A DNA stretch of 64,000 nt, taken from Proteobacteria bacterium UBA2383. Lineage in GTDB: Bacteria > Pseudomonadota > Gammaproteobacteria > Competibacterales > Competibacteraceae. The stretch lies in contig DDST01000138.1 in NCBI GenBank assembly GCA_002343485.1, positions 53,082-117,081 of the forward strand. Reading direction: 5' to 3'. Numbering within the stretch: position 1 is the first letter of the stretch; each line of letters begins with the position of its first letter. Of this stretch, positions 31,190-63,901 are shown piece after piece. The notes under the pieces are model-generated. The model had not been told where the DNA came from. It worked only from the letters and a program-made list of their open reading frames with translations, and did no database searches. A program made the position numbers and the translations under genes.

Positions 31190-31231
31190 GTGGGAGAGAG
31201 GACCTTGGCTACCTAGAGGCGTAATAGAATG

Positions 31232-34200
31232 TCATATTTGTTCAAAAGAAAGCTTGGGGGCTTCGGGCAAAGTATCTAATCGCGCGCGGAGTTGGGCAAA
31301 AGCCAGTTCTAAATCGGCAAAGGCGGTTATTGCATCTTCCAGGCGATTTTCCCGGCCCATAGTCTCCAGCTTATGGCATTTTGACGAAAAAATGGCCGCG
31401 CCCAAAGTGGTGCTTGCTGACTTTAGGGCGTGTGCTTTTGCCCGGATTTCTAGGGCATCTGCCGCTGCTATCGCTGTTCGCAGTGCCTCGATTTGATAAG
31501 GTGCGTTTTCCAGGTAAAGCTGGATCATCCGGGTCAGTGGATTGGGCAATCCTTCCCGGCCCAATGCGCGAATTTGCGCCAGTTGGGATTCGTCCAGAAT
31601 TACAGCTGCTTGGTCATGGCTAATCAATGATGCTGATGGGGAATCTAGCGCCGGTGGGAAATGGTCTACTGGGGTGTGCTGGGGTAACCAGCGCGCTAAC
31701 ACAGTATCTAGTTGCGCCATAGTAAGCGGCTTTCTGAGATAATCATCCATCCCGGCGGCTAAACACAGTTCACGGTCGCCGGCCAGCGCATTAGCAGTCA
31801 GGGCAATGACCGGGAGTCGAGGGCCGCCGGATGCCTGCTCCAGCGCCCGGAGTTGCCGGGTCGCTTCAAAGCCGTCGAGCACCGGCATTTGGCAATCCAT
31901 CAGGGCTAGAGCGTAGCGCCGCTGGGCGATCATCGCGAGCGCCTGCGCGCCATCCTCTGCTAATTCAACGTGCAGGCCTAGCTCTTGGAGCATCTCGCAG
32001 CCTAACTCCTGGTTTACCGGGTGATCTTCGACGAGCAGTACCCGCTGATCATGTCGCGCGGCGTGAGCGGCGGCGGACCGGCCTTTTTGATGTTGCTTGG
32101 GCGAGATGACGCCTGCAGCGTCACCTTGCACGATCGCCAGCAGGCAGTTATACAACTGGGATTCCCGGATGGGCTTGGTCAGATAGGCATGAATTTCCAG
32201 CGTCTGCATCCCAGTTTCTTCAGCCTTATTCCAGATTGAATGAAGTAAAATGACAGGCAGCGGCGCTATCACTGGATCGGCCCGCACCGCCCGGATCAAA
32301 TCGATACCATCCATGCCAGGCATCTCCCGGTCGAACAGGCCCAAGGTGAAAGGGTTGCTTGCCGCGTTCTCGCGGAGTTGCAACAAGGCAGTGCTGGCGC
32401 TATCGGCACTCGCGTGTGGAATGCCCCAAGCGGTCAATTGTTCTTCTAGGATGGTCCGGCTTGTCGCATTGTCATCCACGACCAAGACCCGCATGGTGCT
32501 CAATGTATCAGGAAACCGCAGCGAGCGATCGGCGCTCGCCAGTACTTTAGCCAGTCGCGCAGTGAACCAGAACCGGGAACCATGTCCAGGCTCGCTATCT
32601 ACTCCGATTTCGCCGCCCATCAGCCCAGCAAGACGCTTGCAGATCGCCAAACCTAGTCCGGTACCGCCATATTCGCGGGTGGTTGAGCTATCGGCTTGCG
32701 AAAAGGATTCAAACAACCGGGTCTGTGCTTCGGGGGAAATGCCGATACCGGTATCGCGCACTTCAAATTGCAGCAGGACTTCCGTATCCCTGTCTTCAAG
32801 CGCTTTCACCCACAACGCGACCTCGCCCGCTTGGGTAAACTTGCAGGCATTGCTCAGCAGATTGGTGACTATCTGTCGCAATCGTCCGGCATCGCCCCGC
32901 AGCTTTGGGTATACGCCAGGTGTGATTCCACAAGTCAGTTCCAGACCTTTACGCTGGGCGCGCTCAGCAAACAACTCAGTCACCTCATCGATCAGTTCAC
33001 GAAGATCAAAAGGCGAGTTGTCGAGCTCTAGTTTATCGGCCTCGATTTTTGAGAAATCCAGAATGTCGTTAATGATGGCTAGCAGCGACTCTGCAGAGCG
33101 GCGGATATTGCCGGTAAACCGGTGCTGACGCGCCGACAGTTCGGTATTGGCCAACAATTCGGCCATACCCATCACCCCGTTCATCGGCGTACGGATTTCA
33201 TGGCTCATCACAGCCAGAAATTGTGACTTGGCCTGGTTGGCTTCTTCTGCTGCTTCTTTGGCAGCTTGCATCTGGTGTTGTAATTCGACGCGTTCACTGA
33301 TGTCTTGGGCCACACAGACGATACTGTTTTTCATAACGCCATCATCAATCAATGAGGCAGATAGCGACACTAAAATGTGACGGTTATCCTTGCGCCGGTA
33401 AGCGCAATCGATGCCAGCAACCCGGCCAAAGCGGCGAATCTGGTTGAGCCAGCTGGCATACGATGAGTTAGGCTCCAGCGTAACCAGATGTGAAAACTCG
33501 ATCCCTAATAGCTCACCCTCATTATAACCAAGCCACCGTGCCATAGCCGGATTGACATCAGTGATGCATCCGGCCGGGTCGAGTACGGCAAGTGCGTCAT
33601 TCATACTGCCAAGGATATTTTCGACGGCATTCTTTGAGATAGTGGTCCTGCGCAATTCCGCGGCCATCCGGTTGAATGCGTTGACTAGTAAGCCAATTTC
33701 ATCGCGTGAATCGAAAAGTAATGTAATGGGTTCGCTGAGATCGCCCGTCTGCTGGATCCGATCCATCGTTTGGCGGATTTGCGTTAAGGGATTAACCACG
33801 CTGAGGATTACTTGATGACTAAAGCCGATGGTGAAGCAGAAGGCAATGCTTATTAGCAGACAGGCCGTCCAGGTGAGTTCACGGCTATTGTTCTGGATAG
33901 CAGCGATGGTGCTATGGAGAAAATCGGTTTGTTGCTTCACTAAGCCGTGGAGGAGAGGGGTTAGTTGGGCAATCACCGGCGCAGCGCGGGTTGCCATCCA
34001 GTGATTGGCGATGTTCCAGTCAGGGCGGCCTCGCAGCTCCAGCAGTTTGCCGGCAAGTAAAGAGAATTGTTGACGGGCGTTAAGGTACGTTTCAAAAATT
34101 TGCTGCTGTTCTTCGCTCATCAGAAAATCCAGTAGCAAGAGTTCTTGAGACCGGGTCTGATTACGCATCCACTCCTCACTCCAAGCTTGGTGATAGCGGT

Positions 34201-34834
34201 TCTCGCCGGTCAGCAAGTAGTCGCGCAGATTGGCCGCAGCGTTGTTAGCGCTGCCTTGAGCGTGAGCGAGGATAAATGGGAGTTCTCCATGTGATGCATT
34301 GGTTTCCCGATGCCGCTCCAGATCGATCAGATGGGTCAAACTGTTCGAGAGGATTGAGGAGAGCGGTGCCGCTTGCTCGGTTAGCAACTGCACAGCGGGA
34401 ATATTGTCTGGCGTCCAGGCAATGTCTTCGATCGCCTGCTGATGAGCCAGGGCATCGGTCAGAAGCTGTTCGATGCGGGCTAAATCCGCTGCTGGCGGAT
34501 TCAGTGGATTTGACGGGGTTGCTGTCTGGGTCTTGAGTTGAGCGAGGGCTGGCAGGATCTCTTGCTCAATGGCCGTGCGCCGTTCTGTGCGGAATTGAGG
34601 ATCGCCAAGCAGCATCCAACCGCGCAGTGCGGCTTGGGAATGTTCGAGTCCGCCCAATATGCGCAGACTCGCCAAGGCCATCGGTGTGACGTGGCGAGTG
34701 ACCTCTTCCGTCGCCCCAAGATTCTGCTTGACCATGATCAGGGTAAAGGTACCGGTCACGGTGATGGTGAGAAACATCAAAGCCAAGCCGATATTTAGCT
34801 TTGCTCGTAGGGACCAGCTTTTGAGAGGACGCAT
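31232..34834 (-). CDS. hybrid sensor histidine kinase (periplasmic/4-helix sensor, HAMP, PAS, HisKA-HATPase, two receivers, HPt)
   Basis: 1200 aa. [13 protein letters not shown]-box, [27 protein letters not shown]. Two REC domains (VLVVDDN.., [17 protein letters not shown]). C-terminal HPt ([13 protein letters not shown]). Confidence 0.9.
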
Positions 34835-46478: not shown

Positions 46479-47435
46479 TCAGGCGGCATATTTGCATTCA
46501 TAATGGATAACATCGGGGTTTTCATCGAAGGCTGCTTGTCCTAAGCAAATAATACCTTGGTCTTGAAGAATGATTTCTTCACGTCGCACGAAAAAACGTG
46601 ACCCGTTTTCTAGCATCAAGTATGTTCCGTTCGTGCTGTGGTCCGCCAGGATAAATTTACCCTGCCGGGACTCAATAATGGCATGGCTGCGAGACACCAG
46701 TTCCCGGTCGATGACCAAGTTGTTTCTGGTACCACGGCCTATGCTAAAAGGCTCGGCGGAAGGCGCCAATTCAATATTCTGGCCACGATAAACCAGAAGT
46801 AGCCGGGCATATAATTTATTACGCAGGATCTTTTGCGTTTCCACATCAGACATCTGGGTGAGGCTAGTCGATTCATACCAGATCACCTCGACGATTTCCA
46901 TTTCATCCTGTTTACCACGCACCCAGGACCGGCCAAGGCCTCGGGTCATTTGTTGAAGGTCCGGTGACAGGTAGCTTACCGTCTCCCGTGTCGTAATGAT
47001 TTGATCCGCTTTGGCCAGGGCCACCATCCGGGCTGCAACATTGACTGCGTCGCCAAAGACATCATTCTTTTCAACTAACACTGACCCATGGTGGAGGCCA
47101 ATCCGAATCGCAATATTCAAATCGACTAACACCGGATCATTTTTGATCCCCTCCTGCATGTCACACGCAGCCTGTACTCCCGATGTGGCGGCAGGAAAGC
47201 GGCTCATGATTTCATCGCCAATCGTTTTAATTACTGTGCCATGATGGGTAGCCGTCCGTGCTGCAAGCAAGTCCAATACACGGCTTTCAATTTGCCGTGC
47301 GCGCACATCTCCGTACTTTTCAAACAGGTGGGTACTACCACAAATATCAGCGAATAACAGAGTGGCCATCTCTTGCTGGCTTGATCCCGATGGAGTGCCT
47401 AGCATGGATGCTAGGTTGCTCAGTTTAAATTTCAT
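46479..47435 (-). CDS. class III adenylate/guanylate cyclase with C-terminal FHA domain
   Basis: 318 aa. Cyclase metal/catalytic motifs FADICGST, IGDEIM, GDAVNVAARM. FHA motifs FSIGRG..N.LVI....VSRSHA and HSTNGTY. Confidence 0.85.
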   Translation of the reverse strand: MKFKLSNLASMLGTPSGSSQQEMATLLFADICGSTHLFEKYGDVRARQIESRVLDLLAARTATHHGTVIKTIGDEIMSRFPAATSGVQAACDMQEGIKNDPVLVDLNIAIRIGLHHGSVLVEKNDVFGDAVNVAARMVALAKADQIITTRETVSYLSPDLQQMTRGLGRSWVRGKQDEMEIVEVIWYESTSLTQMSDVETQKILRNKLYARLLLVYRGQNIELAPSAEPFSIGRGTRNNLVIDRELVSRSHAIIESRQGKFILADHSTNGTYLMLENGSRFFVRREEIILQDQGIICLGQAAFDENPDVIHYECKYAA

Positions 47436-49414: not shown

Positions 49415-51544
49415 ATGACAGCACCTTTTGTTGATCTACATTACGAGTGTGATCCTCCGGGGGTGATATTAATCCTGGAAGATGAGCCTTACATCCTGGC
49501 CGCCTTGTATCGCCAATTACCTCATGAATTCCATGTGGTTACGGCCACTACGGTTGATCAGGTGCTAGTCTTGCTGAATCAGCGGACCGTGGATGTGATC
49601 GTCATCGGCCAACGCATGGCTGGTGTCGGCATTGAGCTTCTCAGCGAGGTACGACAGCATGCTCCAAATACAGTTTGGATTTTGCTCGCCAATTGTCCGG
49701 CGCTAGATACGGCCATTCAGGCGAGCAACCTGGAGTGTATTGACGCTTACCTGGTGAGGCCTTTGGGCTCACTGGAGTTGTGTACTTTGCTGCATGAAGG
49801 CATCCAGGAAGCTCGTTTGCTGATCAAAAATCAGCAGTTGCTCAGCGAGCTGAGTCAAGTTAAGCAGCAACTGGAAATACAGATCAATCAACTAAAACAA
49901 GAGTTGCGCAACAGCCAGGAACAGTTTCAAAGCGTAGTGAGAAAGAATCAAGCCGGTATTCTGTTATTGGATGAGCAGGGCAAGATTCTATTCGCTAACC
50001 TGGCCGCAGAAACCCAGTTAGGCCGTAATGATCAAATGTTGATAGGCAGTGATTTTGGCATCCCCGTTTTACATGACAAAATGGAAATCACCATCCTGCT
50101 TCCTAACCGGACGCAGGGCATTGCTGAACTGATGGCCACCGAAACTCAGTGGCAGGGCCAGAACGCCTATCTGGTGATGCTGCATGATGTGACCCGGCAC
50201 AAAAAAGCGGAAGCCCAGGCCCGGCATCTGGCCAGCCACGATAGCTTGACGGCCTTACCTAATCGCGTCTTGTTTACTGATCGCCTTAACCAGGCGCTCC
50301 TGCGGGCGCAGCGTAGCAAAACCAAGGCCGCTGTGTTGTTTATAGATCTGAATCATTTTAAGGAAATCAACGATACGCTGGGTCATAAGGTCGGCGATCA
50401 CTTGCTTCAGCAATTCGCATCCCGGTTGGCCGAAGCAGTGCGTAAATCCGACACGGTGGCGCGGATGGGAGGCGATGAATTCACGGTGCTGCTGGAAGGG
50501 TTGAACGACCGCAAACAGGTCAGTGCCTTCGCCAAAAAACTGCAGAAACTTTTTAAACAGCCTTTCGCAATGGATAACGGTGAGTTGTTTGCTATTCCCA
50601 GCATCGGTATCAGCATCTACCCTGATGATGCTGGGAATACCGATGAGTTGCTGTGCCGGGCCGATAGCGCCATGTACTACGCCAAGCGCCATAAGGAAGT
50701 CGACTTCTGTTTTTATTCTAAAGAACTCGACACCCATAACCTCAACCGTCTGAGTCTGGAACATGACCTGCGCCGGGCATTGGAACGACAGGAATTTGTT
50801 CTGTATTACCAGATCCAGGTGCGTCTTTGTGATGAACGGCCTATCGGCACGGAGGCACTGGTACGCTGGCAGCATCCGAGCCGGGGGGTGGTTCTGCCTA
50901 ACGATTTTATCCCGTTGCTCGAAGACACTGGCCTGATTATACCCGTTGGCAACTGGATTCTAGCGGAAGTCTGCCGGCAGATTGCGGCGTGGCGCGCTAT
51001 GGATGTCGACCTTGTGCCGGTGGCAGTCAATATCTCTCCTAAGCAACTAGCAGATAAAAGTTTCATTGGAACGATGAGAGGCTTGCTGGAGCACAGTAAT
51101 ATGCAACCCCGCTTGCTGAGACTGGAATTAACCGAAAGCGCGGTGATGCAAGATCAGTCTTACATTTTTCAAACCCTGGATGCCCTGCGCGAACTAGGCA
51201 TTGAATTGCATATGGATGATTTTGGCGTAGGCTATTCGTCCCTCGGTCTGCTCAAGCAACTGCCCTTTGATATTGTGAAGGTGGACCAGAGTTTTATTGT
51301 CGACGTGTTGACTGATTCCAGCAGCGCCCTATTGACTCAATCGATCATCAACATAGCACATGGCCTTAAAAAACAGGTAATTGCCGAAGGTGTTGAAACT
51401 ACGGAACAAGCTGCGTATTTACTGCACATCGGTTGTGATCATGCGCAAGGCTGGCGGTATGGCCAACCTATTCCTGCAGCCAGCATGACAGACTACCTGC
51501 AAAATATGGAGTGCCTGAACGCTTCTGCCTCAGAGGAGGATTGA
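49415..51544 (+). CDS. pseudo-receiver-PAS-GGDEF-EAL protein
   Basis: 709 aa. REC-like N-terminus with Gly at the phospho-Asp position (DVIVIGQRMAG), coiled coil, PAS, GGDEF (RMGGDEFTVLL), EAL (EALVRW, DDFGVGYSS). Confidence 0.9.
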   Translation: MTAPFVDLHYECDPPGVILILEDEPYILAALYRQLPHEFHVVTATTVDQVLVLLNQRTVDVIVIGQRMAGVGIELLSEVRQHAPNTVWILLANCPALDTAIQASNLECIDAYLVRPLGSLELCTLLHEGIQEARLLIKNQQLLSELSQVKQQLEIQINQLKQELRNSQEQFQSVVRKNQAGILLLDEQGKILFANLAAETQLGRNDQMLIGSDFGIPVLHDKMEITILLPNRTQGIAELMATETQWQGQNAYLVMLHDVTRHKKAEAQARHLASHDSLTALPNRVLFTDRLNQALLRAQRSKTKAAVLFIDLNHFKEINDTLGHKVGDHLLQQFASRLAEAVRKSDTVARMGGDEFTVLLEGLNDRKQVSAFAKKLQKLFKQPFAMDNGELFAIPSIGISIYPDDAGNTDELLCRADSAMYYAKRHKEVDFCFYSKELDTHNLNRLSLEHDLRRALERQEFVLYYQIQVRLCDERPIGTEALVRWQHPSRGVVLPNDFIPLLEDTGLIIPVGNWILAEVCRQIAAWRAMDVDLVPVAVNISPKQLADKSFIGTMRGLLEHSNMQPRLLRLELTESAVMQDQSYIFQTLDALRELGIELHMDDFGVGYSSLGLLKQLPFDIVKVDQSFIVDVLTDSSSALLTQSIINIAHGLKKQVIAEGVETTEQAAYLLHIGCDHAQGWRYGQPIPAASMTDYLQNMECLNASASEED

Positions 51545-51690: not shown

Positions 51691-53487
51691 ATGAGCGCGC
51701 TTTCCTTGCTGCATCATCGGGTTGGCCAGACGCTGATCGCCGGCATCGCTTTATTAAGTCTGCTGGTGATAATCAGCACGACTGCCATTCAGTTTTATTT
51801 CGACTACCGGACTGCTCGCGCTGGACTTATGGCTCCCTTTGACCCGGTTCGCCATCTTGCTGATACCCGCCTGAGTCAGGCTGTCTGGGCCGAAAACAAC
51901 ACTCAAATTCAGGCGTTTCTGGATGTCCTGGTCACGATGCCCGATCTCTACTATGCAGCGATTATAAAACAAGGCCAAGTTCAAGCGCAGGCCGGTCAGC
52001 CTTCAGTCACATATCCTGTTGAATGGGAAATTCCATTGCAATTTACTCTTGAAGGCCAGCCGCTTGAAATCGCGCGTCTGCGCCTGATAAGCGACGAAGA
52101 TGCCATTTGCGCCCAACTGATCCGCCGATCCCTGCAGCGGCTGGCCACCACCACTGTGGAAATACTGGCTCTGGCTCTGCTCATTGTGCTGTTCCTGTTC
52201 CACGGCCTGACCCGCCGCCTGCAGGCCGTTGCTCACTGTGCCGGCGCACTGGATTCTGCACACGGTCCAGGCAGCGTGTGCCTGAACCGCTTGACATCCG
52301 CATGTGGCGAGGACGAACTCGATATTGCGGTCACCAATGCTAGCCGGGTCCATTGTAAACTGGCGGGTCTTTATGCGGATGAACACGCTCGCTCCAAGAC
52401 AGCGCTTCTGCATCTTGATTACGCGCTGGCTAACATGACGGAAGGACTGGCCCTAATGGATGCCGAGGGTTTGGTGCTACTGGCCAATCCCCGGCTGAAT
52501 GAACTCTACGGCGCTGATCACACGCCGGTATGGGCCGAAGGACAGCCGCTGGCTGCGATCAATGCTGCTCTGACCGAGCAGGCCATGGTCACCGAGGAAA
52601 TCGTGATTGAAGCAGTCGCGGACATGCGCTTGCTGGAACGCCGGTTGCGGGACGGACGATGGGTACTGGTCCGTGATCGCACCCTACCCGGCGGACGCCA
52701 GTTGCAGCTGCATACTGAGATCACCCAGCTTAAGCAGCGTGAATTGGATTTGCAGCACAGCAACGCAGATCTTGAGCAATTCGCCTATGTCGCCTCCCAC
52801 GATCTGCAAGAACCTTTGCGCATGATTACCGGGTATCTGCAATTATTGGAGCGCCGCTACCGGAACAAATTAGATGATTCGGCCCACGAGTTTATCGCCA
52901 TCGCGGTGGACGGGGCCAAGCGCATGCAGCAACTGATTCTCGATTTGTTAGCGTTCTCGCGGATCAGTACGCGCAGCCAAACCTATGCGTCGACCGATAT
53001 GGCACAGGTATTATCCAGCGTTCTTGCCAATCTTGAAGCCGCCATCCGCGATCATGCGGCCCTCATCCATCATGATCCACTGCCTACCATCGTCGCTGAT
53101 TCAGGGCAAATGCACCTATTACTGCAAAACCTGCTGGCCAATGCCCTCCGTTTCCACAAACCGGATGAGCCGCCACACATCACGATTAGCGCCCAGCATC
53201 TCAAAAAAACCTACCATGCTCCCTTGGACGGACAGGTTTCCGGCTGGATCTTCGCGGTATGTGATAATGGCATTGGTATTGAGCCGTGTTTTTTTGAACG
53301 CATTTTCATTATCTTTCAGCGGCTGCATACTCGGGAGGAGTATCCGGGCACCGGAATTGGGCTGGCGGTTTGTAAAAAGATCGTTGAGCGTCATGGCGGG
53401 CGCATTTGGGTCGAATCTAAGCTGGATCAAGGAACATGCTTTCGCTTTTTCCTGCCCGATCATTCACTCACTATAGGTTCTGCTTGA
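51691..53487 (+). CDS. membrane sensor histidine kinase (TM-periplasmic-TM, PAS, HisKA-HATPase; H-box of the SHDLQEPLR type)
   Basis: 598 aa. FAYVASHDLQEPLRMI H-box, NLLANALRF, DNGIGI, GTGIGLAVCKKIVERHGG. Confidence 0.9.
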   Translation: MSALSLLHHRVGQTLIAGIALLSLLVIISTTAIQFYFDYRTARAGLMAPFDPVRHLADTRLSQAVWAENNTQIQAFLDVLVTMPDLYYAAIIKQGQVQAQAGQPSVTYPVEWEIPLQFTLEGQPLEIARLRLISDEDAICAQLIRRSLQRLATTTVEILALALLIVLFLFHGLTRRLQAVAHCAGALDSAHGPGSVCLNRLTSACGEDELDIAVTNASRVHCKLAGLYADEHARSKTALLHLDYALANMTEGLALMDAEGLVLLANPRLNELYGADHTPVWAEGQPLAAINAALTEQAMVTEEIVIEAVADMRLLERRLRDGRWVLVRDRTLPGGRQLQLHTEITQLKQRELDLQHSNADLEQFAYVASHDLQEPLRMITGYLQLLERRYRNKLDDSAHEFIAIAVDGAKRMQQLILDLLAFSRISTRSQTYASTDMAQVLSSVLANLEAAIRDHAALIHHDPLPTIVADSGQMHLLLQNLLANALRFHKPDEPPHITISAQHLKKTYHAPLDGQVSGWIFAVCDNGIGIEPCFFERIFIIFQRLHTREEYPGTGIGLAVCKKIVERHGGRIWVESKLDQGTCFRFFLPDHSLTIGSA

Positions 53488-54000: not shown

Positions 54001-54876
54001 ATGGCTGATGTGCAAGCGCCTACTCGACCGCTGCGCCTGCTCTTGGTTGAAGACGATGCGGGCCATGCCCGGTTGACCAGGGAATGGCTCCAGGAAGCGG
54101 ATCCGTTTGGATTTGCTATCACGCACGTCGTCACTTTGACTGCCGCCCTAGCTGTGCTGAAAGAACAGGTTTTCGATTTGATGGCGCTGGATCTTGGGCT
54201 TCCGGATAGCCAGGGACTGGTTACCCTGCAAAAAATGCGCGCCATGATTTCCGATATCCCGATTGTGGTGTTGACCAACCAGTCAGATGAATCCATGGGC
54301 ATCGCTGCGGTCGAAGCAGGCGCTCAGGATTACCTGGTCAAAGGCCACTTTGAACCCGAATATCTGCTCTCGCGCACCTTTAAATACGCTGTCGAACGCC
54401 ATCAACTCCAGCAACGGGTGAATGCCGCCCGCGAGGAGGCGGAACAACAACGGGAACTGCTGGAGCTGACCAAAAGAATCAACGGCCATACTCCCGTGAC
54501 GTTGTCATTGTATAGCCAGAAAGCTTTGGCCGACTATAATGCGGTGCTGTTTCAGACGCTGGTCAACACGTATCGCGACTTGCTAGAGAAGGCGGTGGAG
54601 CAGCAGGCATTCAAAGTGGAGCATCCCGTCGATCGCGGGTTGACCGCACTGGCGCAACAACTGGGTTTTTTGAAAGCCGGACCGCGTGATGTCATTGACC
54701 TGCACTCCCGCGCGTTAGAAATCGCCTTGCAGAACCGGGGCAAATATGCCGCCAAATTCTATGCCGACGAAGGGCGGCTAATGGCGCTGGAATTGATGGG
54801 AGATCTGGTCAATTACTACCGGCATTTCTACCGGAATGCGCTGCATAGCACACAGACTGGAAAAGAACCCCTTTGA
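54001..54876 (+). CDS. receiver domain fused to a KaiA-like (or RsbU_N-like) helical C-terminal domain; candidate KaiA3-type protein
   Basis: 291 aa. Canonical REC ([28 protein letters not shown]). The C-terminal ~110 aa align by eye with the S. elongatus KaiA C-terminal domain (details in findings). It lies 13 nt upstream of kaiB. Confidence 0.6.
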
Positions 54877-55190: not shown

Positions 55191-56717
55191 ATGTCCTCTT
55201 ATCACTCTAATCGGATTAGCAAGCTGGCGACGGGGATTGCCGGTTTCGATGCGATCGCTAAAGGCGGACTACCCGAGGGGCGTACCACTCTGATTGCCGG
55301 TTCGGCCGGCAGCGCCAAGACCGTGTTCGCTGTCCAGTTTCTTGCTGAAGGCATCCGTCAGTTTGACCAGCACGGCGTATTTGTCACTTTCGAGGAAGCG
55401 CCCGCCGATATCCGCCGCAATATGGCGTCCCTGGGCTGGGATATCGCTGCTTGGGAAGCTGCAGGATGTTGGGCCTTTGTCGATGCTTCGCCGCTACCTG
55501 GTGAGGCCGAGGTCATCGCCGGTGCCTACGATCTTGGTGCGCTGCTGGCCCGTATCGAGGTTGCGGTTAACCGGGTCGGCGCGCGGCGATTGGCCATGGA
55601 TTCACTGGGGTCCTTGTTCAGTCATTTTGAGAATCATGCACTAATCCGCAACGAGCTGTTCCGCATCTCAGCCGCGCTGAAACTGATGAACATCACCGCG
55701 ATCATGACCGCCGAGCGTACCCAGGAGTACGGTGACATCAGCCGCTACGGTGTGGAAGAGTTTGTGGTCGATAATGTCATGATCCTGCGCAATGTGCTGG
55801 ATGGGGAGAAGCGGCGGCGGACCGTGGAGCTGCTCAAATTCCGCGGCACCGAACACCAGAAGGGTGAATATCCGCTGACGGTACTCCCCGGTCAGGGTAT
55901 CGTGGTCATCCCGCTGTCAGCCATCGAACTCAAGCAACGCTCGTCGAACACCCGCCTCACGTCCGGCAGCCGCGAATTAGACGCCATGTGTGGCGGCGGA
56001 TTCTTCCGTGATTCGATTATTCTGGTGTCCGGGGCCACCGGTTGCGGCAAAACACTCATCACCACCGAGTTTGCCGCCAGCGGTGCGTCCGGAGACGAGC
56101 GATGCCTATTTTTGGCTTTCGAGGAGAGCCGGGATCAGTTGACGCGGAATGCGACTGGCTGGGGCAAAAACTTTGAAGATTTGGAATCCCGGGGCTTGCT
56201 CAGGGTCATCGCAACTTATCCGGAAACAATGGGACTGGAAGACCATCTGATCGCCATCAAGATGGCCATTGACGAATTCCAGCCTAATCGCGTGGCGGTG
56301 GACAGCCTGTCCGCCCTAGAACGGGTCTCCACCGTCAAGGGTTACCGCGAATTCGTCATCGGCTTGACGTCGTTCATCAAGCACCGTGAAATCGCTGGCT
56401 TGTTCACCTCCACGACGCCACGGCTGATCGGCGGCGAATCGATCACTGAAGCGCATATTTCCACTATCACGGATTCCATTATTCTGCTGCGCTACGTGGA
56501 GATGTTTGGGGAGATCACTCGCGGCATCACGGTGCTGAAGATGCGCGGCTCAGCCCACGATAAGGAGATCCGCGAGTTTTCCATCGACGCCAACGGCATG
56601 CACATTGGTAAGGCCTTCCGCAACGTTACCGGTATCCTGTCGGGTCATCCGCGCCATGTGGAACCTCAGGAAATCGGGCGGTTGAACGCCTTGTTTGTTA
56701 ATCATAACGAGGCGTGA
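55191..56717 (+). CDS. kaiC: KaiC homologue (double RecA-type ATPase)
   Basis: ATG at 55191 follows AAGGA. 508 aa. CI P-loop GSAGSAKT with TFEE. CII P-loop GATGCGKT with AFEE. The phosphosite region ITEAHISTITDSIILLRYVE conserves the T..S-T triad. Confidence 0.95.
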   Translation: MSSYHSNRISKLATGIAGFDAIAKGGLPEGRTTLIAGSAGSAKTVFAVQFLAEGIRQFDQHGVFVTFEEAPADIRRNMASLGWDIAAWEAAGCWAFVDASPLPGEAEVIAGAYDLGALLARIEVAVNRVGARRLAMDSLGSLFSHFENHALIRNELFRISAALKLMNITAIMTAERTQEYGDISRYGVEEFVVDNVMILRNVLDGEKRRRTVELLKFRGTEHQKGEYPLTVLPGQGIVVIPLSAIELKQRSSNTRLTSGSRELDAMCGGGFFRDSIILVSGATGCGKTLITTEFAASGASGDERCLFLAFEESRDQLTRNATGWGKNFEDLESRGLLRVIATYPETMGLEDHLIAIKMAIDEFQPNRVAVDSLSALERVSTVKGYREFVIGLTSFIKHREIAGLFTSTTPRLIGGESITEAHISTITDSIILLRYVEMFGEITRGITVLKMRGSAHDKEIREFSIDANGMHIGKAFRNVTGILSGHPRHVEPQEIGRLNALFVNHNEA

Positions 56718-56748: not shown

Positions 56749-57261
56749 TCAATTCACTTGTAGCAAGGCTAGCAACCCCTCCAGCAATTGCATCGGAGCC
56801 GGCGGGCAACCAGGAATATGCAAATCAACTGGAATTACCTCGGCCACTCCACCCGCACAAGCATAGCTCTTGGCGAACACGCCGCCATCTCGCCCGCAAT
56901 CGCCGATTGCCACCACCCATTTAGGATCGGGTGCCGCCGCGTAGGTGCGCTCCAGCGCCTCGCGCATATTCGTGGTCACCGGGCCGGTGACCAGCAATAC
57001 ATCCGCATGGCGCGGCGAAGCGACGAAATGAAAACCGAAGCGTTCCAGATCATAAAAGGCGTTATTCAGCGCATGAATTTCCAGTTCGCAACCGTTGCAG
57101 GAACCTGCATCCACCTCACGGATCGCTAGACTGCGCCCTAGCCGCTGCCGGGCTGCCTGATCGACCTTCGCGCCTAATTCAGCCAGCGCTTGTCCGGATG
57201 GGGCCGGGGCCGGGATGGTGAGTGGCAGCCGCCAGAGATTTTGCAACAATAATTTGCGCAT
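56749..57261 (-). CDS. NuoB/HyfI-like small subunit with [4Fe-4S] ligands
   Basis: 170 aa. GSCNGCE, GDCG and GCPP supply four Cys, as for the N2/proximal cluster. Confidence 0.9.
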   Translation of the reverse strand: MRKLLLQNLWRLPLTIPAPAPSGQALAELGAKVDQAARQRLGRSLAIREVDAGSCNGCELEIHALNNAFYDLERFGFHFVASPRHADVLLVTGPVTTNMREALERTYAAAPDPKWVVAIGDCGRDGGVFAKSYACAGGVAEVIPVDLHIPGCPPAPMQLLEGLLALLQVN

Positions 57262-57272
57262 GGCGGGACCGC

Positions 57273-58793
57273 CTACAAGTCGTGGCCCGAATACGAGCCG
57301 TTAAACGATTTATTGCACAGCGGGAAATCCGCTACGATGTTGCCCTCGATGGCTGCTTCCAGCAGGGGCCACTGAAACCAGGACGGATCGCGGGGATGGC
57401 AGCGTGCTACCGTCCCGTCGCTGTTCAATCGCAGCCAGACTAGAATATCGCCGCGAAAGCCCTCGATCAGCGCCATACCTTCACACGGCCGGCCAAGCGC
57501 GTTCAGCGCCACGCCCACCGGCCCGGATGGCAGCTTCTGCAAAATCTGTTCGATCAACGCCAGGCTTTGCTCCACCTCGCAGATGCGCAGCCACACGCGA
57601 CCGTTGACGTCACTATCAGTCCGCAGGGGCACCTCGAATTTCAATTCATCGTAAGGCGGATAACCCAGTGCACGGCGTGCGTCAAAAGCGCGGCCTCCGG
57701 CCCGGCCGACATAGCCGCCACAGCCAAATTGGCGGATCAGCGCCGGTTTGACAAAGCCGGTTTTAACTGTGCGGTCTTGCAGCGAAGCGGTGTTGTCGTA
57801 CAACGTGACCAGCGGTGGAAATTGGCGGCGGATACCGGTTACCAAGGATTGCAAAATATCCGGCCCATCTGCGGGCAGATCAGTGGCCACCCCGCCTGGA
57901 ATGACACTATCCATTAGCAGACGATGGCCGAAACAGGCCGCACTGGCCCGCAGAATCTGCTCGCGCAGCACGGCGCAATGGGCCAGCATCAAGGCAAAAG
58001 CGGCATCGTTGCAAATCGCGCCGATGTCACCGCAATGATGGGCCAGCCGCTCCAATTCTGCCATCAGCGCCCGTAGCCAATGGGCACGGGCAGGAATTTC
58101 AGTTTCCGTGGCGGCTTCTACCGCACGAGCGAAAGCCAGCGCGTAAGCAACGGTGCTATCCCCAGATATCCGTCCGGCTAGCTGCGCTGCTTGCTCCAGC
58201 GATGCGCCTTTCAGCAGGCCCTCGATGCCTTTATGGACATAGCCCAACCGTTGCTCCAGCCGTGCTACGGCTTCGCCGTTGGCGGTAAAGCGGAAATGGC
58301 CAGGTTCAATGATCCCGGCGTGAACCGGTCCCACTGGAATCTGGTGCAGGCTTTCGCCTTCTACCGGCAAAAATGGGTATGGCGGCACCGGTGAGGCCGG
58401 CGCAGTGGCAGCACCCAGCGGATGGCGCACTGGCCAGCGGCCATGATCCAGCCACGGACGAACATCGGGCGCGCCGACCGGGTGTAAACCCATCAAATCG
58501 GCGATCGTGCGTTCCAGACGTTGCGCCGGTGGATGCCGGCGGCCCACTGAGGGAAAGCATCCATCCGGGCAGGGCAGGCTGGCGACGCTCAGCATCCCGC
58601 TTGCCTCCTCACGCACGGCCAAATGCACAACTCCCGTCTCACCCCATAATCCCAGCAGCGTCCAAACATTACCCGCCAAGCCTTCAATCAGGGTATTCCA
58701 GATTTCGGGCGTCACGACGACCCGGGGCCAGGGGCGATGGTCCGCCACCGGGTGGCCGGCATCGAGAACTGCTTGCAAGGATTGTGTATTCAT
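57273..58793 (-). CDS. fused NuoC-NuoD / HycE-like large subunit lacking the N-terminal NiFe cysteines (Ehr-type)
   Basis: Start taken at MNTQSL (ATG 58793, 11 nt after the upstream stop); the listed longer ORF overlaps the upstream gene. GPVHAGIIEPGHFRF and RLGYVHKGIE are conserved. It reads GRISGDSTVAY where NiFe enzymes have R-[IV]-C-G-[IV]-C. The C-terminus reads DFPLCNKSFNGSYSGHDL instead of DPCxxCxxR/H. Confidence 0.85.
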   Translation of the reverse strand: MNTQSLQAVLDAGHPVADHRPWPRVVVTPEIWNTLIEGLAGNVWTLLGLWGETGVVHLAVREEASGMLSVASLPCPDGCFPSVGRRHPPAQRLERTIADLMGLHPVGAPDVRPWLDHGRWPVRHPLGAATAPASPVPPYPFLPVEGESLHQIPVGPVHAGIIEPGHFRFTANGEAVARLEQRLGYVHKGIEGLLKGASLEQAAQLAGRISGDSTVAYALAFARAVEAATETEIPARAHWLRALMAELERLAHHCGDIGAICNDAAFALMLAHCAVLREQILRASAACFGHRLLMDSVIPGGVATDLPADGPDILQSLVTGIRRQFPPLVTLYDNTASLQDRTVKTGFVKPALIRQFGCGGYVGRAGGRAFDARRALGYPPYDELKFEVPLRTDSDVNGRVWLRICEVEQSLALIEQILQKLPSGPVGVALNALGRPCEGMALIEGFRGDILVWLRLNSDGTVARCHPRDPSWFQWPLLEAAIEGNIVADFPLCNKSFNGSYSGHDL

Positions 58794-58804
58794 TGCTCTG
58801 TCTC

Positions 58805-60262
58805 TTAGCCTAACAATGCCGCGACACTTTGAAACCAGGCCACCAGTGGCCCCGGTAACCAGAATCCGGCGGCCAGCACCAATATGAGATGCGTCATCAT
58901 AGGCAGTGCGGTGACGGGCGCAGGTCCCGGCATATTCGCGCCCTGCGATTCGCCAAATGCTATGCCATGTAATCGCCATAACAAGGTGCCGAACCCTAGC
59001 AGCAACCCGATGACCAGCGGCAGTGCCAGCCACGGTTCGCGAGCAAACGTAGAACTGACCACCAGAAACTCACTCATGAACACGCCGAATGGCGGCATGC
59101 CGGCAATGGCCATCACCCCGGCCACGAATCCCCAGCCCAGCAGCGGATGGGTCGCGGTCAGTCCGTGAATCGTGGAAATCCGCTGCGTACCCTTGACCTG
59201 CGAGATATAACCGACAGCAAAGAAAATCGCTGACTTGGTGAGACTGTGCATCGTCATATGCAGCAGACCGGCAAAATTGGCCAAGGGCCCGCCCATGCCG
59301 AAGGCAAAGGTCATGATGCCCATGTGTTCAATCGACGAGTAGGCGAACAGCCGTTTGATGTCGCCGCGCCGGTAGAACATGAACCCAGCGAACAGCAATG
59401 ATAACAGCCCTAATCCGGCCATCAACGGCCCTGGTGCCAAAGCGGATGGGTTCGCGTTCATCAGTATCTTGAAGCGCAGCACCGCATACAGCGCCACATT
59501 CAGCAGCAGGCCCGACAGCACCGCCGAGATCGGCGTCGGGCCTTCGGCATGGGCATCCGGCAGCCAGGCATGCAACGGAACCAGACCGGCCTTGGTGCCG
59601 TAACCGAGCAGCAGGAAGATGAACGCCAGATTCAGCAACGCTGGATCAAAGGCGTGCGCGTGCGTCAATAACTGATCCCAGGCCATCGCGGGCAAGCCTT
59701 GGCCCATGACCGGTTGCGCCGCTAGATACACCAGGATGGTGCCAAACAATGCTAAAGCAATGCCGAGACTGCCGAGGATGAAATACTTCCAGGCGGCTTC
59801 CAGCGCTTCACGGGTCCGGTAAATACCAACCATCAGCACCGTCACCAGCGTCGCCAGTTCGATCGCTACCCACAGCAGGCCAATGTTGTTGGCCAGCAGT
59901 GCCAAGTTCATGGCAAACACCAGCGCCTGATACATCGCGTGATAAAAGCGCAAATGCTTCGGTGTAAGCCGCCCGGTCTCCAGTTCATGGGTAATGTAGC
60001 TGGCGCTGAATGCACTGGTGGTGAAACTGACCAGATTGTTGAGTATGATCAGATAGGTGTTGAAATCATCCACCCGCAGGTAGACATTAGCGCCGGGCCG
60101 CACCCCAAACAGGATCATTGACGCCAACAGGCTGATCAGCGCCGCACCGGCATTCAGCCCGGCACCCAGCCGGTAACTAGGCAATCCCGCCAGCAGCAGT
60201 GCAGCGCCGGCGGGAATCGCCAGCAGCGCGGTCATCGCCATCCAGCCTAAATCGCCATTCAT
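58805..60262 (-). CDS. NuoN/M-HyfF-like antiporter-type membrane subunit
   Basis: 485 aa, about 14 TM, Mrp/NuoN-type pattern (..GYGTKAGLVPLHAWLPDAHAEGP..). Confidence 0.9.
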   Translation of the reverse strand: MNGDLGWMAMTALLAIPAGAALLLAGLPSYRLGAGLNAGAALISLLASMILFGVRPGANVYLRVDDFNTYLIILNNLVSFTTSAFSASYITHELETGRLTPKHLRFYHAMYQALVFAMNLALLANNIGLLWVAIELATLVTVLMVGIYRTREALEAAWKYFILGSLGIALALFGTILVYLAAQPVMGQGLPAMAWDQLLTHAHAFDPALLNLAFIFLLLGYGTKAGLVPLHAWLPDAHAEGPTPISAVLSGLLLNVALYAVLRFKILMNANPSALAPGPLMAGLGLLSLLFAGFMFYRRGDIKRLFAYSSIEHMGIMTFAFGMGGPLANFAGLLHMTMHSLTKSAIFFAVGYISQVKGTQRISTIHGLTATHPLLGWGFVAGVMAIAGMPPFGVFMSEFLVVSSTFAREPWLALPLVIGLLLGFGTLLWRLHGIAFGESQGANMPGPAPVTALPMMTHLILVLAAGFWLPGPLVAWFQSVAALLG

Positions 60263-60927
60263 CGCCGCCGCTCTCCACGAAATGCATCCATTGCCTGCAT
60301 ATCGACGCTATCGAAGCGCTCACGAATGCGAAACAGGAAAATACCGATCACGATCAAAGCGATCAGTACCGAGAATGCGACGCTGATCTCCACGGCCAGC
60401 GGCATTCCCCGCGCCCCGGCGGCGGCCAGCACCAGCCCGTTTTCCAATGACATAAAACCGATGACCAGGCTGACCGCATTGTGGCGGTTGACCATCAACA
60501 ACAGCCCCAGCAGCACCACTGCCAGGGCGAACGCCAAGTCCTCCCGCGCCACCGCATCGGTTCCTGCCGTTACCGGCAGCATCACCAGGATCGCAAGAGC
60601 CACCAGGGCTGCACCGGCTAGCATATCGCGGCCCACGCCTCCTACCACATCCAAAGTGCGATGGATGCCCAATCGCCGGACAATCCGATACAGTGCGGCC
60701 GGAATGACGATCGCTTTGAATATCAATGCGATCCCGGCAGTGACATATAAATGATGGGCTTCCTGGATGTATGCTTGCCAGCCGACCGCCAGCGCCAGGG
60801 TCAGCGAGTGCAAAGCGAAGACCTTGAGCAGCGCATATAGGCGATGCTGATACAGCAACAGCAGGCTGATGACCACCATGCCGCCTGCTAGAAAATGGGC
60901 GATATCGAACTCAAGACTGTGCATCAC
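60259..60927 (-). CDS. HyfE-like membrane subunit
   Basis: 222 aa, multi-TM. 4-nt overlaps with both neighbours. Confidence 0.8.
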   Translation of the reverse strand: MMHSLEFDIAHFLAGGMVVISLLLLYQHRLYALLKVFALHSLTLALAVGWQAYIQEAHHLYVTAGIALIFKAIVIPAALYRIVRRLGIHRTLDVVGGVGRDMLAGAALVALAILVMLPVTAGTDAVAREDLAFALAVVLLGLLLMVNRHNAVSLVIGFMSLENGLVLAAAGARGMPLAVEISVAFSVLIALIVIGIFLFRIRERFDSVDMQAMDAFRGERRR

Positions 60928-61880
60928 AGGCTCCGTGACACGAACAGCAGCAGCGCGCCGAGCAAACCGAGCATCAGCGCCATGCCCAAAAATTGATCGA
61001 CGCGGAACACGCGCATTTTGGCAATGCGGGTCTCAAACAGCGCCAGCAGAAACCCGCCTAGCCCCAATTTGGCCAGATAGGCTGCCACGCCAGTTAGGTA
61101 GGCGGTTAAATCTTCGCCTGCGGTGGTCATACCCCAGGGGGCAAAGATGCAGCCGAGCAGCGAAAGATACAATAACAGCTTGAGCGAGGCAGCCAGTTCG
61201 ATTAGCGCCAGATGGCGGCCGGAGTATTCCAGCACCATGGCTTCATGCACCATGGTCAGCTCCAGATGGGTAGCTGGATTGTCCACCGGAACGCGGGCGT
61301 TTTCGGCGATCGCCACCATGACCAGCGCTAACAGCGCTAGCGCCAGCGATACCCGCAAACCGACATCGGCATTCAGCATGAATCGGGCGACCGCCGACAG
61401 CTCAGTGGTGCCGGCCAGTAACGATAAAGTGAACACTATCATCAGCATGGCCGGTTCTGCCAAGGACGCGATCATCATTTCGCGGCTGGCGCCGATGCCG
61501 CCAAAGCTGGTGCCAGTGTCGAGACCCGCCAACGCCAGGAAAAAACGGGCTGTCCCCAGCAAGGCGACGATGGCGATCAGATCGGCGGCCCAATTGAACG
61601 GCAAGCCGCTGGCAAAGGTCGGCACCAGCGCCGCCGCCACCCAGATGGCGGCAAAGATCAGGTAGGGCGCTACCCGAAACAGCCAGGATGCCGAGTCGGC
61701 CAGCACCACGTCCTTACGCAGCAGCTTGAGCAGATCGCGGTAGGGTTGTAGCGGCGATGGACCGCGCCGGCGCAGCAATTGGGCCTTGAGGGTGCGGATC
61801 CAGCCGGTGAGCAGCGGCGCCAGCAGCAAGATCAGCAGCATTTGCCCGCCCTGGACCAGATAATCCGTGATTAGCGCCAT
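60924..61880 (-). CDS. NuoH/HyfC-like membrane subunit
   Basis: Start taken at MALITDYLV (ATG 61880). The listed 608-aa ORF is an upstream extension running through the preceding gene. 318 aa, NuoH-like TM pattern. Confidence 0.9.
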   Translation of the reverse strand: MALITDYLVQGGQMLLILLLAPLLTGWIRTLKAQLLRRRGPSPLQPYRDLLKLLRKDVVLADSASWLFRVAPYLIFAAIWVAAALVPTFASGLPFNWAADLIAIVALLGTARFFLALAGLDTGTSFGGIGASREMMIASLAEPAMLMIVFTLSLLAGTTELSAVARFMLNADVGLRVSLALALLALVMVAIAENARVPVDNPATHLELTMVHEAMVLEYSGRHLALIELAASLKLLLYLSLLGCIFAPWGMTTAGEDLTAYLTGVAAYLAKLGLGGFLLALFETRIAKMRVFRVDQFLGMALMLGLLGALLLFVSRSL

Positions 61881-63901
61881 AGCACTATCCCGAGCAGCAG
61901 CAATACCAGCGCGCCGAACACCAGACTTAAATAACGGCGAATCGTTAGGTATTGCAAGTTGTTGAAACGCTTTGAAAGAGCGATAACTGCCTGGGTAATC
62001 GGCGCATAGCCGTAGTCCCAGACCGGGTCGCGCATTTTGACTTCGAAGCGTGCTGCTCGCCCATCGCCGGGCGGCGGCATGGTGACTTGTTCGCGGGCCT
62101 GGAATACTACGCTGCCGAAGACGCGGCGGATGGGTTGGGCGAAACTGCCAGCGGTGTACTGGGCGGCGGGGCTGGCATCGGGGAAACCGCAGTCCCAGGC
62201 TGGGCTGCGCCGGACCCGATTGGAGGCGAACCCGTGAATCAGCACGGCGGCGAGTATCCCGGATAACGCCATGAACAACAGCACCAGCAGACCGTTGTAA
62301 GTGCTTTTCATATCGGCCACCGGTACCAAGGTCAACCACGGCTGATGCTGTTGCGCTGGCAACTGGGCGCCGCCGTTGAGCAGACCCACTGCTGGCGACA
62401 ATCCATCTATCACCAGCCCTGGTAAAGTTCCAGCCAGCAGGCACAATGCCGCCAGAGTGAACAGCGCGGCCAATGAGTAGCGATCGGTCTCTTGCGCTTT
62501 TGCAGCCGCCGGCGAACGGGGGCGGCCGAGGAAGGTAATGCCAAAGGCTTTGACGAAACAGGCGGCAGCTAAGGCAGCAGACAACGCCAACAGCGCCCCG
62601 GCTGCCGGGGCCAGGAATTTGAGCAGCCATTGCGGTAATTCCGGCGTCAGCAAAATCGCCTGGAAGGTCAGCCATTCGGAGACAAAACCGTTCAATGGCG
62701 GTAGCGCCGAAATCGCCGCCGCGCCGGTCAGGAAGGCCAGCGCGGTCCACGGCATCGGGTGAATCAATCCGCCCAGCCGCTCCATATCGCGTTCGCCGGT
62801 TGCGGTCAAGACCGCGCCAGTCCCCATAAATAACAGGCTTTTGAACAGCGAATGATTCAGCACATGAAATAGCGCCGCGGTCAGCGCCAGCGCCGCGCTG
62901 GCGTACATTTGATTGCTCTGGAAGGCCAGTGCTAGACCCAAGCCGATGAAAATAATGCCGATATTCTCCACAGTGTGATAGGCCAGCAACCGTTTCAGAT
63001 CATGCTGCATCAGCGCATACAGCACCCCGAGCACCGCCGTGATTCCACCCAGCGCCAGCACGAGCCCGCCCCACCACCATGCGACCGGTTCCCCCAATAG
63101 ATCGAAGACAATGCGGATGAAGCCGTACACGGCGACCTTGGTCATGACGCCGCTCATCAGCGCCGATACGTGGCTGGGCGCGGCGGGGTGCGCCAGCGGC
63201 AACCAGACATGCAAGGGGACCAGCCCGGCTTTGGAACCGGTCCCCATCAACACCAGAATGAGCGCCAGCGCCGCCAGTCCTGGCGTCATTTCCACGGTTC
63301 GGATTGTGGCGAAGTCATAACCACCATTGGCACCAGCCAGCAGGCCGAAGGCCAATAACAGCGCCAGCGTGCCAAGGCAGGCCATGACCAGATACAGATA
63401 ACCGGCGCGGGCATTGGCTGGTTCCCGGTGATGGGCCATGACCAGCGCCCAGGAACTCAGCGACATGAATTCCCAGGCGAACAGGAAAGTGAAGGCATCG
63501 TCAGCCAGCAGCACCAGGTTCATGCCCGCTAGAAACGCGGGGTAGAACGGCAACACCCGCCCCGGCGCTGGTTCATGCTGGCCATAACCCAGCGCAAATA
63601 GGCTGGCGACCGCGCCGCCCAAATTAACCACAATCAGGAAGAAAGCGGATAGTGCGTCCAGGCGGAAATGCGCGCCCAGCCAGGGCAGGCCCAAAGGTAA
63701 GGTGAGCGTGACTGGTGCGGCGGCGTTCAGCAGATGCGTCAGCGCCATCCCCAGCAGGATGACGCAAATCACTAAGCTGACCCCGTAGACCTGAAGACTG
63801 CAACTCGCTCGGCGTGAAGCGAGGATGGCATAGAGGCCAATAGCAAGCAGGATCATGGACAAACTTAACAGCAGCGGCAGTGGCATGGTGGTGAAATTCA
63901 C
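61871..63901 (-). CDS. NuoL-HyfB-like antiporter-type membrane subunit
   Basis: 676 aa. ..GTGSKAGLVPLHVWLPLAHPAAPSHVSALMSG.., typical of the NuoL/HyfB family. Confidence 0.9.
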   Translation of the reverse strand: MNFTTMPLPLLLSLSMILLAIGLYAILASRRASCSLQVYGVSLVICVILLGMALTHLLNAAAPVTLTLPLGLPWLGAHFRLDALSAFFLIVVNLGGAVASLFALGYGQHEPAPGRVLPFYPAFLAGMNLVLLADDAFTFLFAWEFMSLSSWALVMAHHREPANARAGYLYLVMACLGTLALLLAFGLLAGANGGYDFATIRTVEMTPGLAALALILVLMGTGSKAGLVPLHVWLPLAHPAAPSHVSALMSGVMTKVAVYGFIRIVFDLLGEPVAWWWGGLVLALGGITAVLGVLYALMQHDLKRLLAYHTVENIGIIFIGLGLALAFQSNQMYASAALALTAALFHVLNHSLFKSLLFMGTGAVLTATGERDMERLGGLIHPMPWTALAFLTGAAAISALPPLNGFVSEWLTFQAILLTPELPQWLLKFLAPAAGALLALSAALAAACFVKAFGITFLGRPRSPAAAKAQETDRYSLAALFTLAALCLLAGTLPGLVIDGLSPAVGLLNGGAQLPAQQHQPWLTLVPVADMKSTYNGLLVLLFMALSGILAAVLIHGFASNRVRRSPAWDCGFPDASPAAQYTAGSFAQPIRRVFGSVVFQAREQVTMPPPGDGRAARFEVKMRDPVWDYGYAPITQAVIALSKRFNNLQYLTIRRYLSLVFGALVLLLLGIVLWR

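Follow-up and report, generated by a model that had tools for sequence, protein, structure and literature searches.

A KaiA3 homologue encoded directly upstream of kaiB and kaiC in an uncultured gammaproteobacterium

The stretch considered here, called the window throughout (64,000 nucleotides in all; contig DDST01000138.1 of Proteobacteria bacterium UBA2383, positions 53,082 to 117,081), contains immediately in front of a kaiB and a kaiC gene an open reading frame (ORF) for a protein combining a receiver domain with a helical C-terminal half. An earlier note, made from the sequence alone, had likened this half to the KaiC-binding domain of KaiA and had read the whole protein as KaiA3-like. 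For many years KaiA was regarded as restricted to cyanobacteria, and the locus raises the question of what such a protein is in a relative of the Competibacteraceae: a KaiA, a KaiA3, a partner-binding module of the RsbU type or an ordinary response regulator; and of which kinase, if any, feeds its receiver. According to its sequence, it was unambiguously a full-length homologue of KaiA3, and its membership of the KaiA3 family was well supported.

KaiA3 was described as Sll0485 in Synechocystis sp. PCC 6803, together with orthologues elsewhere (Köbler et al. 2024, Nat Commun 15:7674, PMC11372060). It binds KaiC3, promotes phosphorylation at S423/T424 and forms complexes with KaiB3 and KaiC3 (PMC11372060), and it drives an in-vitro oscillation (PMC11372060, PMC12081879). 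The biochemistry of KaiC3 binding and stimulation and of the KaiB-dependent ternary complex was established with proteins from Synechocystis and Cyanothece (PMC11372060, PMC12081879). When compared by BLASTP with Sll0485, whose sequence was taken from Supplementary Dataset 1 of PMC11372060, the window protein displayed 34 % identity over 274 of 291 residues (E 1e-47), colinear through both domains, and its D64 aligned with D65 of Sll0485. The alignment reached residue 277, the region of Sll0485 compared being residues about 141-299, and two C-terminal motifs were common to both proteins: LGF[LM]KA[GS]PRD.I..H and EGRL..LELMG.L..[FY]YR, which in Sll0485 take the forms LGFMKASPRDIIEIH and EGRLIVLELMGYLASFYRKYY. 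The window protein was thereby nearer to Sll0485 than the listed orthologues from Rhodospirillum and Bradyrhizobium, which share 25-31 % identity with it (PMC11372060). Identity rose to 43 % with cluster P0028, the counterpart of a Roseiflexus castenholzii protein itself listed as a KaiA3 orthologue (PMC11372060), and to 71 % with a Competibacteraceae relative.

Three traits of KaiA3 were thus found together in the window protein, namely a phosphorylatable receiver, an Sll0485-like C-domain and the order kaiA3-kaiB-kaiC. As in Sll0485, a receiver with its phospho-acceptor aspartate is followed by a linker and a KaiA-like C-domain (291 versus 299 residues), the gene order is the same, and the partner KaiC displays adjacent serine and threonine residues (S424/T425 versus S423/T424) without an extended C-terminus. 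The differences lie in the surroundings: the host is an uncultured gammaproteobacterium, the 64 kb carry no photosynthesis genes, and a sensor kinase and an Rcp1-type receiver belong to the same string of genes. The KaiA3-like reading of the earlier note was supported by BLASTP, by the kaiBC context and by the top structural matches to KaiA described below. One qualification was needed: KaiA3 is known from 15 cyanobacterial species and from orthologues in five other genera (PMC11372060), so that the family itself is not new and the window protein is not its first member outside cyanobacteria. The host lineage (Gammaproteobacteria, Competibacteraceae-related) is, for its part, absent from the list in the original KaiA3 paper. 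The window protein was as long as that note had given it, on the plus strand according to the ORF check. All five non-cyanobacterial genera of that list are, to our knowledge, phototrophs.

The receiver was recognised by Pfam as Response_reg at residues 14-121 (E 2.6e-19), and its phospho-chemistry set was complete (E17, D18, D64, T92, Y111 and K114), in agreement with the earlier description of a canonical receiver holding every phosphorylation residue. D64, the predicted phospho-acceptor, was invariant among 42 aligned homologues, while E17, D18 and K114 were kept in at least 90 % of them. In the AlphaFold2 (AF2) model of the full-length protein, the receiver adopted a beta-alpha fold with a predicted local distance difference test score (pLDDT) above 90, and pLDDT fell below 50 at residues 159-168, after the linker helix. 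Foldseek searches with this full-length model returned receiver-domain proteins only (best E 1e-7) and did not inform on the C-domain, which was modelled separately. Residues 150-291 yielded four long helices with a pLDDT of 85.7 and a predicted template modelling score (pTM) of 0.80. Pfam at E<=1 recognised nothing in the C-terminal 170 residues, and the response-regulator matches from NCBIfam were mostly limited to receiver and linker, all of them far below their cut-offs. The coordinates are collected in Table 1.

Table 1. Features of the kaiA3-kaiB-kaiC locus, in window coordinates
Feature	Position	Strand	Basis
REC-PAS-GGDEF-EAL protein	49415..51544	+	Pfam
CHASE5-PAS-HisKA-HATPase_c membrane sensor histidine kinase	51691..53487	+	Pfam
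Stand-alone Rcp1/RcpA-type receiver, 151 aa	53540..53995	+	Pfam and PDB matches
kaiA3-type gene, 291 aa	54001..54876	+	ORF and homology to KaiA3
Receiver (REC) domain, residues about 10-121	54028..54363	+	Pfam Response_reg, AF2, Foldseek
Long linker helix, residues 121-162	54361..54486	+	AF2 full-length model
KaiA-like C-terminal helical bundle with family motifs, residues about 176-286	54526..54858	+	AF2, Foldseek, hhalign
kaiB, 95 aa	54890..55177	+	Pfam KaiB 7.6e-29; PDB 4kso KaiB E 6e-29
kaiC, 508 aa, double-domain	55191..56717	+	NCBIfam KaiC 711 bits

Kinase, single receiver, kaiA3, kaiB and kaiC were separated by only 52, 5, 13 and 13 nucleotides in the window, which agreed with the position directly upstream of kaiB-kaiC noted earlier. 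The coordinates of kaiB and kaiC were the same in public gene calls (GCA_002343225.1, a gammaproteobacterial metagenome-assembled genome, same contig). This short spacing suggested an operon, and kaiA3 is probably co-transcribed with kaiB and kaiC. A promoter and terminator scan detected no terminator-like site between the five genes, from the kinase to the end of kaiC; this is weak evidence. The scan as a whole yielded fewer sites than shuffled sequences did.

The partner KaiC was consistent with a KaiA3 system. It reads HIS424T425ITD, so that S424/T425 match the phosphosites S423/T424 of KaiC3. Its C-terminal tail was short (GILSGHPRHVEPQEIGRLNALF) and displayed a motif, GILSGxP......E[IV]xR[LM]xxLF, that was conserved across the KaiA3-linked KaiCs of the collected loci and sits where KaiC of S. 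elongatus has its KaiA-binding A-loop and tail. Against PDB entries it scored 691 bits with 8zn5 (ancestral KaiC-beta), 568 bits with S. elongatus KaiC and 322 bits with Rhodobacter KaiC; this double-domain protein was thus much nearer to cyanobacterial and ancestral KaiC than to the extended KaiC of Rhodobacter. The P-loop of its CI domain (residues 37-44, window 55299-55322) reads GSAGSAKT, that is GxxGxAKT instead of the canonical GxxGxGKT, while that of CII was canonical (GATGCGKT). The alanine form was encountered in 28 of the 32 KaiA3-linked KaiCs of loci L001-L166 with a readable motif, and may bear on the ATPase rate of CI.

The breadth of the family was approached with a profile of the C-domain, which matched the representatives of 1800 clusters formed at 50 % identity when E<=1e-3 was applied, the number falling to 720 with E<=1e-30. 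In these matches the domain was without exception C-terminal, in proteins of about 160-850 residues, and the N-terminal modules found among 134 representatives were REC (74), PAS (about 59), GAF (about 10) and MEDS (three). Gene order was assessed in a sample of 89 loci and the window, annotated locally with hidden Markov models (HMMs), whose 94 domain-bearing genes formed 77 clusters at 90 % identity; the cluster counts given below refer to these. kaiB lay directly downstream in 53 out of 55 clusters with enough sequence, and kaiC then followed in 42 out of 42. Eight loci inspected by hand, from Chloroflexi, Nitrospirae, Gammaproteobacteria and others, all displayed this same order. The distribution of the KaiA3-type C-domain thereby goes far beyond the 15 cyanobacterial species and five other genera reported so far, and includes lineages regarded as non-phototrophs, among them magnetotactic Nitrospirae and Competibacteraceae.

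A second architecture was observed in which a PAS domain (PAS_9, E about 1e-16) replaces the receiver (e.g. in the metagenome loci L116, L129, L132, L145, L161 and L166, and in L091), as well as a longer one composed of REC-PAS-PAS and the C-domain; PAS-type genes were also followed by kaiB-kaiC. Two tandem kaiA3-like/kaiB/kaiC cassettes stood side by side in L082 (3163-8683), L132 and L134. A scan of genome contigs based on full-length alignments was swamped by a generic receiver pattern (GAQDYLVKG), the true full-length relatives being only L001-L003. One cyanobacterial candidate, L077, was discarded, being a REC-histidine kinase and not a KaiA3.

The window differed from Sll0485 in having a kinase and a single receiver upstream, and these could bear on the input of the system. 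The kinase comprised CHASE5 (3.3e-08), PAS_7 (1.8e-09), HisKA (3.8e-13) and HATPase_c (2.1e-23) according to Pfam. The single receiver (Response_reg, 4.4e-21) matched Rcp1 (PDB 1i3c, E 3.9e-40) and RcpA (1k68, 5.4e-40). This likeness to Cph1/Rcp1 pairs, with matches at E 4e-40, was accompanied by two differences: a PAS domain and a periplasmic CHASE5 domain replace the phytochrome photosensory module, and the pair is followed by kaiA3-kaiB-kaiC. In cph1-rcp1 the kinase gene likewise comes first and the receiver gene second. A co-directional histidine kinase ending within 1.3 kb upstream was present in 16 of the 35 clusters with enough upstream sequence, and for REC-type KaiA3-like genes in 12 out of 26. 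Half of these 12 displayed a single receiver gene between kinase and KaiA3-like gene, as in the window. The core of the window kinase scored 118-558 bits with the upstream kinases from Chloroflexi, Nitrospirae, Acidobacteria and Gammaproteobacteria, as opposed to just 19-108 bits with kinases located downstream of kaiC in these same loci. The sensors of the upstream kinases differed all the while, being CHASE5-PAS in the window, GAF-GAF in L083, HAMP in L085 and PAS in the Roseiflexus locus L002. This core similarity in spite of differing sensors therefore points to one Cph1-type kinase-core subfamily that accompanies the cassette, but with exchanged sensor modules.

The cognate histidine kinase of KaiA3 "has not yet been identified" (PMC11372060), and the upstream kinase is a candidate for that role, which goes beyond the KaiA3 paper. 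The candidacy has to be weighed against the fact that about half of the related loci lacked an adjacent kinase, so that the link is not obligatory, and that adjacency is no proof of phosphotransfer. The window protein could indeed be a genuine KaiA3 that is phosphorylated, if at all, by some other source and lies next to an independent two-component pair. Kinase adjacency in only about 46 % of loci speaks for such an arrangement, as does the fact that kinase and Rcp1-type receiver already make up a complete canonical pair, like Cph1/Rcp1; nor is a cognate kinase known for KaiA3 of Synechocystis (PMC11372060). The conservation of one kinase-core subfamily with different sensors across Chloroflexi, Nitrospirae, Acidobacteria and Gammaproteobacteria argues in the other direction, as do the operon-like spacing in the window and the six out of 12 kinase-linked clusters (including L002, L085, L115 and L126) in which kinase and KaiA3-like gene are direct neighbours and no receiver gene separates them. 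An independent pair seemed rather unlikely on balance, and is compatible with the KaiA3 assignment because it concerns the input step only. Many related loci (L001, L003, L082, L083, L084, L096, L127/L130 and L163) additionally carried a REC-(PAS)-histidine kinase directly after kaiC, which could be an output kinase. No such kinase followed kaiC in the window, where a convergent hydrogenase cluster was found instead.

The relationship of the C-domain to canonical KaiA (PF07688 C-domain) was more distant. Like the window protein, KaiA displays a receiver-like N-terminus, a helical linker and a helical C-domain, is encoded upstream of kaiB-kaiC and has a similar length (284 residues in S. elongatus, PDB 5n8y_M, as the earlier note had stated); its pseudo-receiver, in contrast, lacks the phospho-acceptor aspartate represented by D64 in the true receiver of the window protein. 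The three blocks that had been aligned by eye were recovered in the same register by HMMER against PDB KaiA and by hhalign against an alignment of 121 KaiA sequences. The identical pairs included Y191/R192=Y198/R199, H235=H237, R259/L260=R262/L263 and Y273/R274=Y276/R277, and the most conserved residues of the family (Y191, R192, H235, R259, Y273 and R274) were those corresponding to identical KaiA residues (Y198, R199, H237, R262, Y276 and R277). The best PDB match of the family profile was KaiA (1q6a/1v2z, HMMER E 0.16 over 75 columns), and hhalign of the family against 121 canonical KaiA C-domains gave a P of 0.0023 over 90 colinear columns. An HMM of canonical KaiA C-domains matched 88 of 262 family members, versus six reversed and three shuffled controls; conversely, the family HMM scored a median of 10.2 bits on the 121 canonical KaiAs and at least 8 bits in 95 of them, versus four reversed and no shuffled controls. 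Foldseek with the model of residues 150-291 placed three KaiA C-domains on top of its PDB matches (5jwr_F, 1q6a_A and 1v2z), with probabilities of 0.98-0.99 and target-normalised template modelling (TM) scores of 0.47-0.61.

Several observations count against the KaiA-like reading. Taken pairwise, the window protein and the KaiA C-domain shared only 13 identities over 90 columns (about 14 %), and the canonical KaiA C-domain HMM attributed a non-significant 0.7 bits to the window protein, in which Pfam detected no KaiA domain at E<=1; among family members, weak Pfam KaiA matches were limited to two out of 34 and four out of 134. The Foldseek E-values were weak (0.04-0.17) and the TM scores moderate. 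A histidine of KaiA reported to be critical, H270 in T. elongatus and H271 in S. elongatus, corresponded to D268 in the window protein and to a tyrosine in most KaiA3 proteins. The relationship to KaiA thus appears significant only at the level of the family and through KaiA3. Among the traits of a canonical KaiA, a C-domain fold of KaiA type was predicted by the model, while the pseudo-receiver without aspartate and the Pfam match were lacking. KaiA3 cannot be replaced by canonical KaiA in the Synechocystis system (PMC11372060).

The same C-domain could alternatively be a partner-binding module of the RsbU_N type (PF08673; PDB 1w53, 2j6y), serving as an adaptor or output that docks on Kai complexes or on another partner but does not stimulate the phosphorylation of KaiC; it might, for instance, be a phosphorylation-dependent readout of the clock state. 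KaiA_C and RsbU_N belong to one superfamily of helical bundles and share one fold, as is also stated in PMC11372060. The P-x-[ED]-[IV]-I-x-[IL]-H motif of some family members resembles 'PPEEIISIH' of RsbU, and the weak Pfam matches across the family counted more RsbU_N (11 out of 134) than KaiA (four out of 134), a further point against the KaiA-like reading. Pfam did not report RsbU_N in the window protein at E<=1, and some canonical KaiAs (P0275 and P0366) displayed matches to both models. RsbU_N differs, however, in its N-terminal position and its fusion to an RsbT-binding PP2C phosphatase, whereas the domain considered here is C-terminal and neither a PP2C phosphatase nor an RsbT-like partner was found with it. 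RsbU_N was absent from the top 50 Foldseek matches, which were headed by the three KaiA C-domains, so that the structure search favoured KaiA over the unrelated bundle that the earlier note had named as the outcome speaking against its reading. The sequence profiles that it had also proposed did not by themselves tell KaiA_C from RsbU_N, the Pfam models giving an ambiguous outcome. The hhalign comparison covered 90 columns for KaiA as opposed to 21 for RsbU_N (P 0.042), which is not a fair test because the local RsbU_N profile was shallow, a homologue search with B. subtilis RsbU_N having yielded just seven near-identical sequences. The linkage to kaiBC was near-obligate, and phosphorylation of KaiC3 is indeed stimulated by KaiA3, the homologue studied experimentally (PMC11372060). 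An RsbU_N-type adaptor was accordingly considered improbable. In our reading, the C-domain forms a family of its own within the KaiA/RsbU_N fold class, the structure leaning towards KaiA and the sequence being undecided; the function is assigned from homology to KaiA3 and from the gene neighbourhood rather than from a resemblance to KaiA itself.

Control of kaiBC transcription by an ordinary DNA-binding response regulator of the OmpR/NarL type, as suggested by the Joint Genome Institute (JGI) names of homologues ('DNA-binding response OmpR family regulator', 'NarL/FixJ family') and by NCBIfam matches to OmpR, CreB, PhoB and similar (43-69 bits), was rejected as most improbable because these scores were far below curated cut-offs (e.g. 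68 versus 331 bits), no Trans_reg_C, GerE or other helix-turn-helix (HTH) domain was detected by Pfam at E<=1, and the C-terminal model was a KaiA-like helical bundle in place of a winged helix or HTH.

Genes for two-component and cyclic di-GMP (c-di-GMP) signalling were unusually abundant in the window. The REC-PAS-GGDEF-EAL gene located upstream of the kinase had a counterpart with the same domains in the Competibacteraceae locus L081, with one extra gene in between, and L087 displayed a large receiver-containing ORF at the equivalent position; a link of c-di-GMP to the kai module is possible. A further signalling pair was encoded at 29033-34834 on the minus strand, made up of a hybrid HAMP-PAS-HisKA-HATPase-REC-Hpt kinase and another REC-PAS-GGDEF-EAL protein. 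The window also codes for a kinase fused to a sodium:solute symporter (8822-11548) and for an adenylate cyclase-FHA protein (46479-47435). An ORF of 1163 amino acids (25491-28982, plus strand) had no Pfam match at E<=1e-5. The minus-strand cluster convergent with kaiC (56749-63901) was of a group-4-like membrane-bound [NiFe] hydrogenase or complex-I-like type and comprised an Oxidored_q6 small subunit, a Complex1_49kDa/NiFeSe large subunit, two Proton_antipo_M proteins and an NADHdh subunit. In Rhodospirillum rubrum, another carrier of a KaiA3 orthologue, hydrogenase activity was reported to be rhythmic (PMC10931921).

What this analysis established is the homology of the protein, its domain layout and predicted fold, the order of the genes and how far the module is conserved. 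The window gene likely encodes a KaiA3-family protein co-transcribed with kaiB and kaiC, in which the receiver serves as input and the C-domain activates KaiC while KaiB counteracts it. By homology with KaiA3 of Synechocystis, the protein would oligomerise, and its C-domain would engage the adjacent KaiC, most plausibly through the conserved C-terminal tail, and promote its autophosphorylation at S424/T425. KaiB would counteract this activation and recruit the protein into a complex of the KaiCBA type, the outcome being either a phosphorylation cycle or an hourglass. It is KaiA that makes a self-sustained oscillator out of a KaiBC hourglass. The receiver domain would act as the regulatory input: the upstream CHASE5-PAS kinase may set the phosphorylation of D64, acting on it directly or with the Rcp1-type receiver as a competitor or relay. 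This phosphorylation, perhaps with the Rcp1-type receiver as a buffer, would tune the strength of KaiC activation. That the protein binds KaiC, that it stimulates KaiC phosphorylation and that the kinase phosphorylates the receiver are the steps that we infer.

Kinase, Rcp1-type receiver, KaiA3, KaiB and KaiC might further be understood as one signalling unit, in which a periplasmic or environmental signal, and not light or the photosynthetic redox state, sets the phosphorylation of the KaiA3 receiver, so that KaiC phosphorylation is gated or entrained in a host that appears not to be phototrophic. This extension is tentative, and possible rather than probable. The concept of a KaiA3 system is unchanged by the locus, and the protein itself was to be expected. 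What the compact, probably co-transcribed locus brings together is KaiA3, KaiB and KaiC with a candidate kinase and a receiver that may compete or relay; all components being defined in one place, the hypothesis leading from the kinase to KaiA3 and on to KaiC lends itself to direct testing in vitro. Useful leads come from the breadth of the family and from its conserved kinase and receiver neighbours. If the five genes do form one unit, the conserved Cph1-type core kinase would be the long-sought input kinase of KaiA3B3C3 systems.

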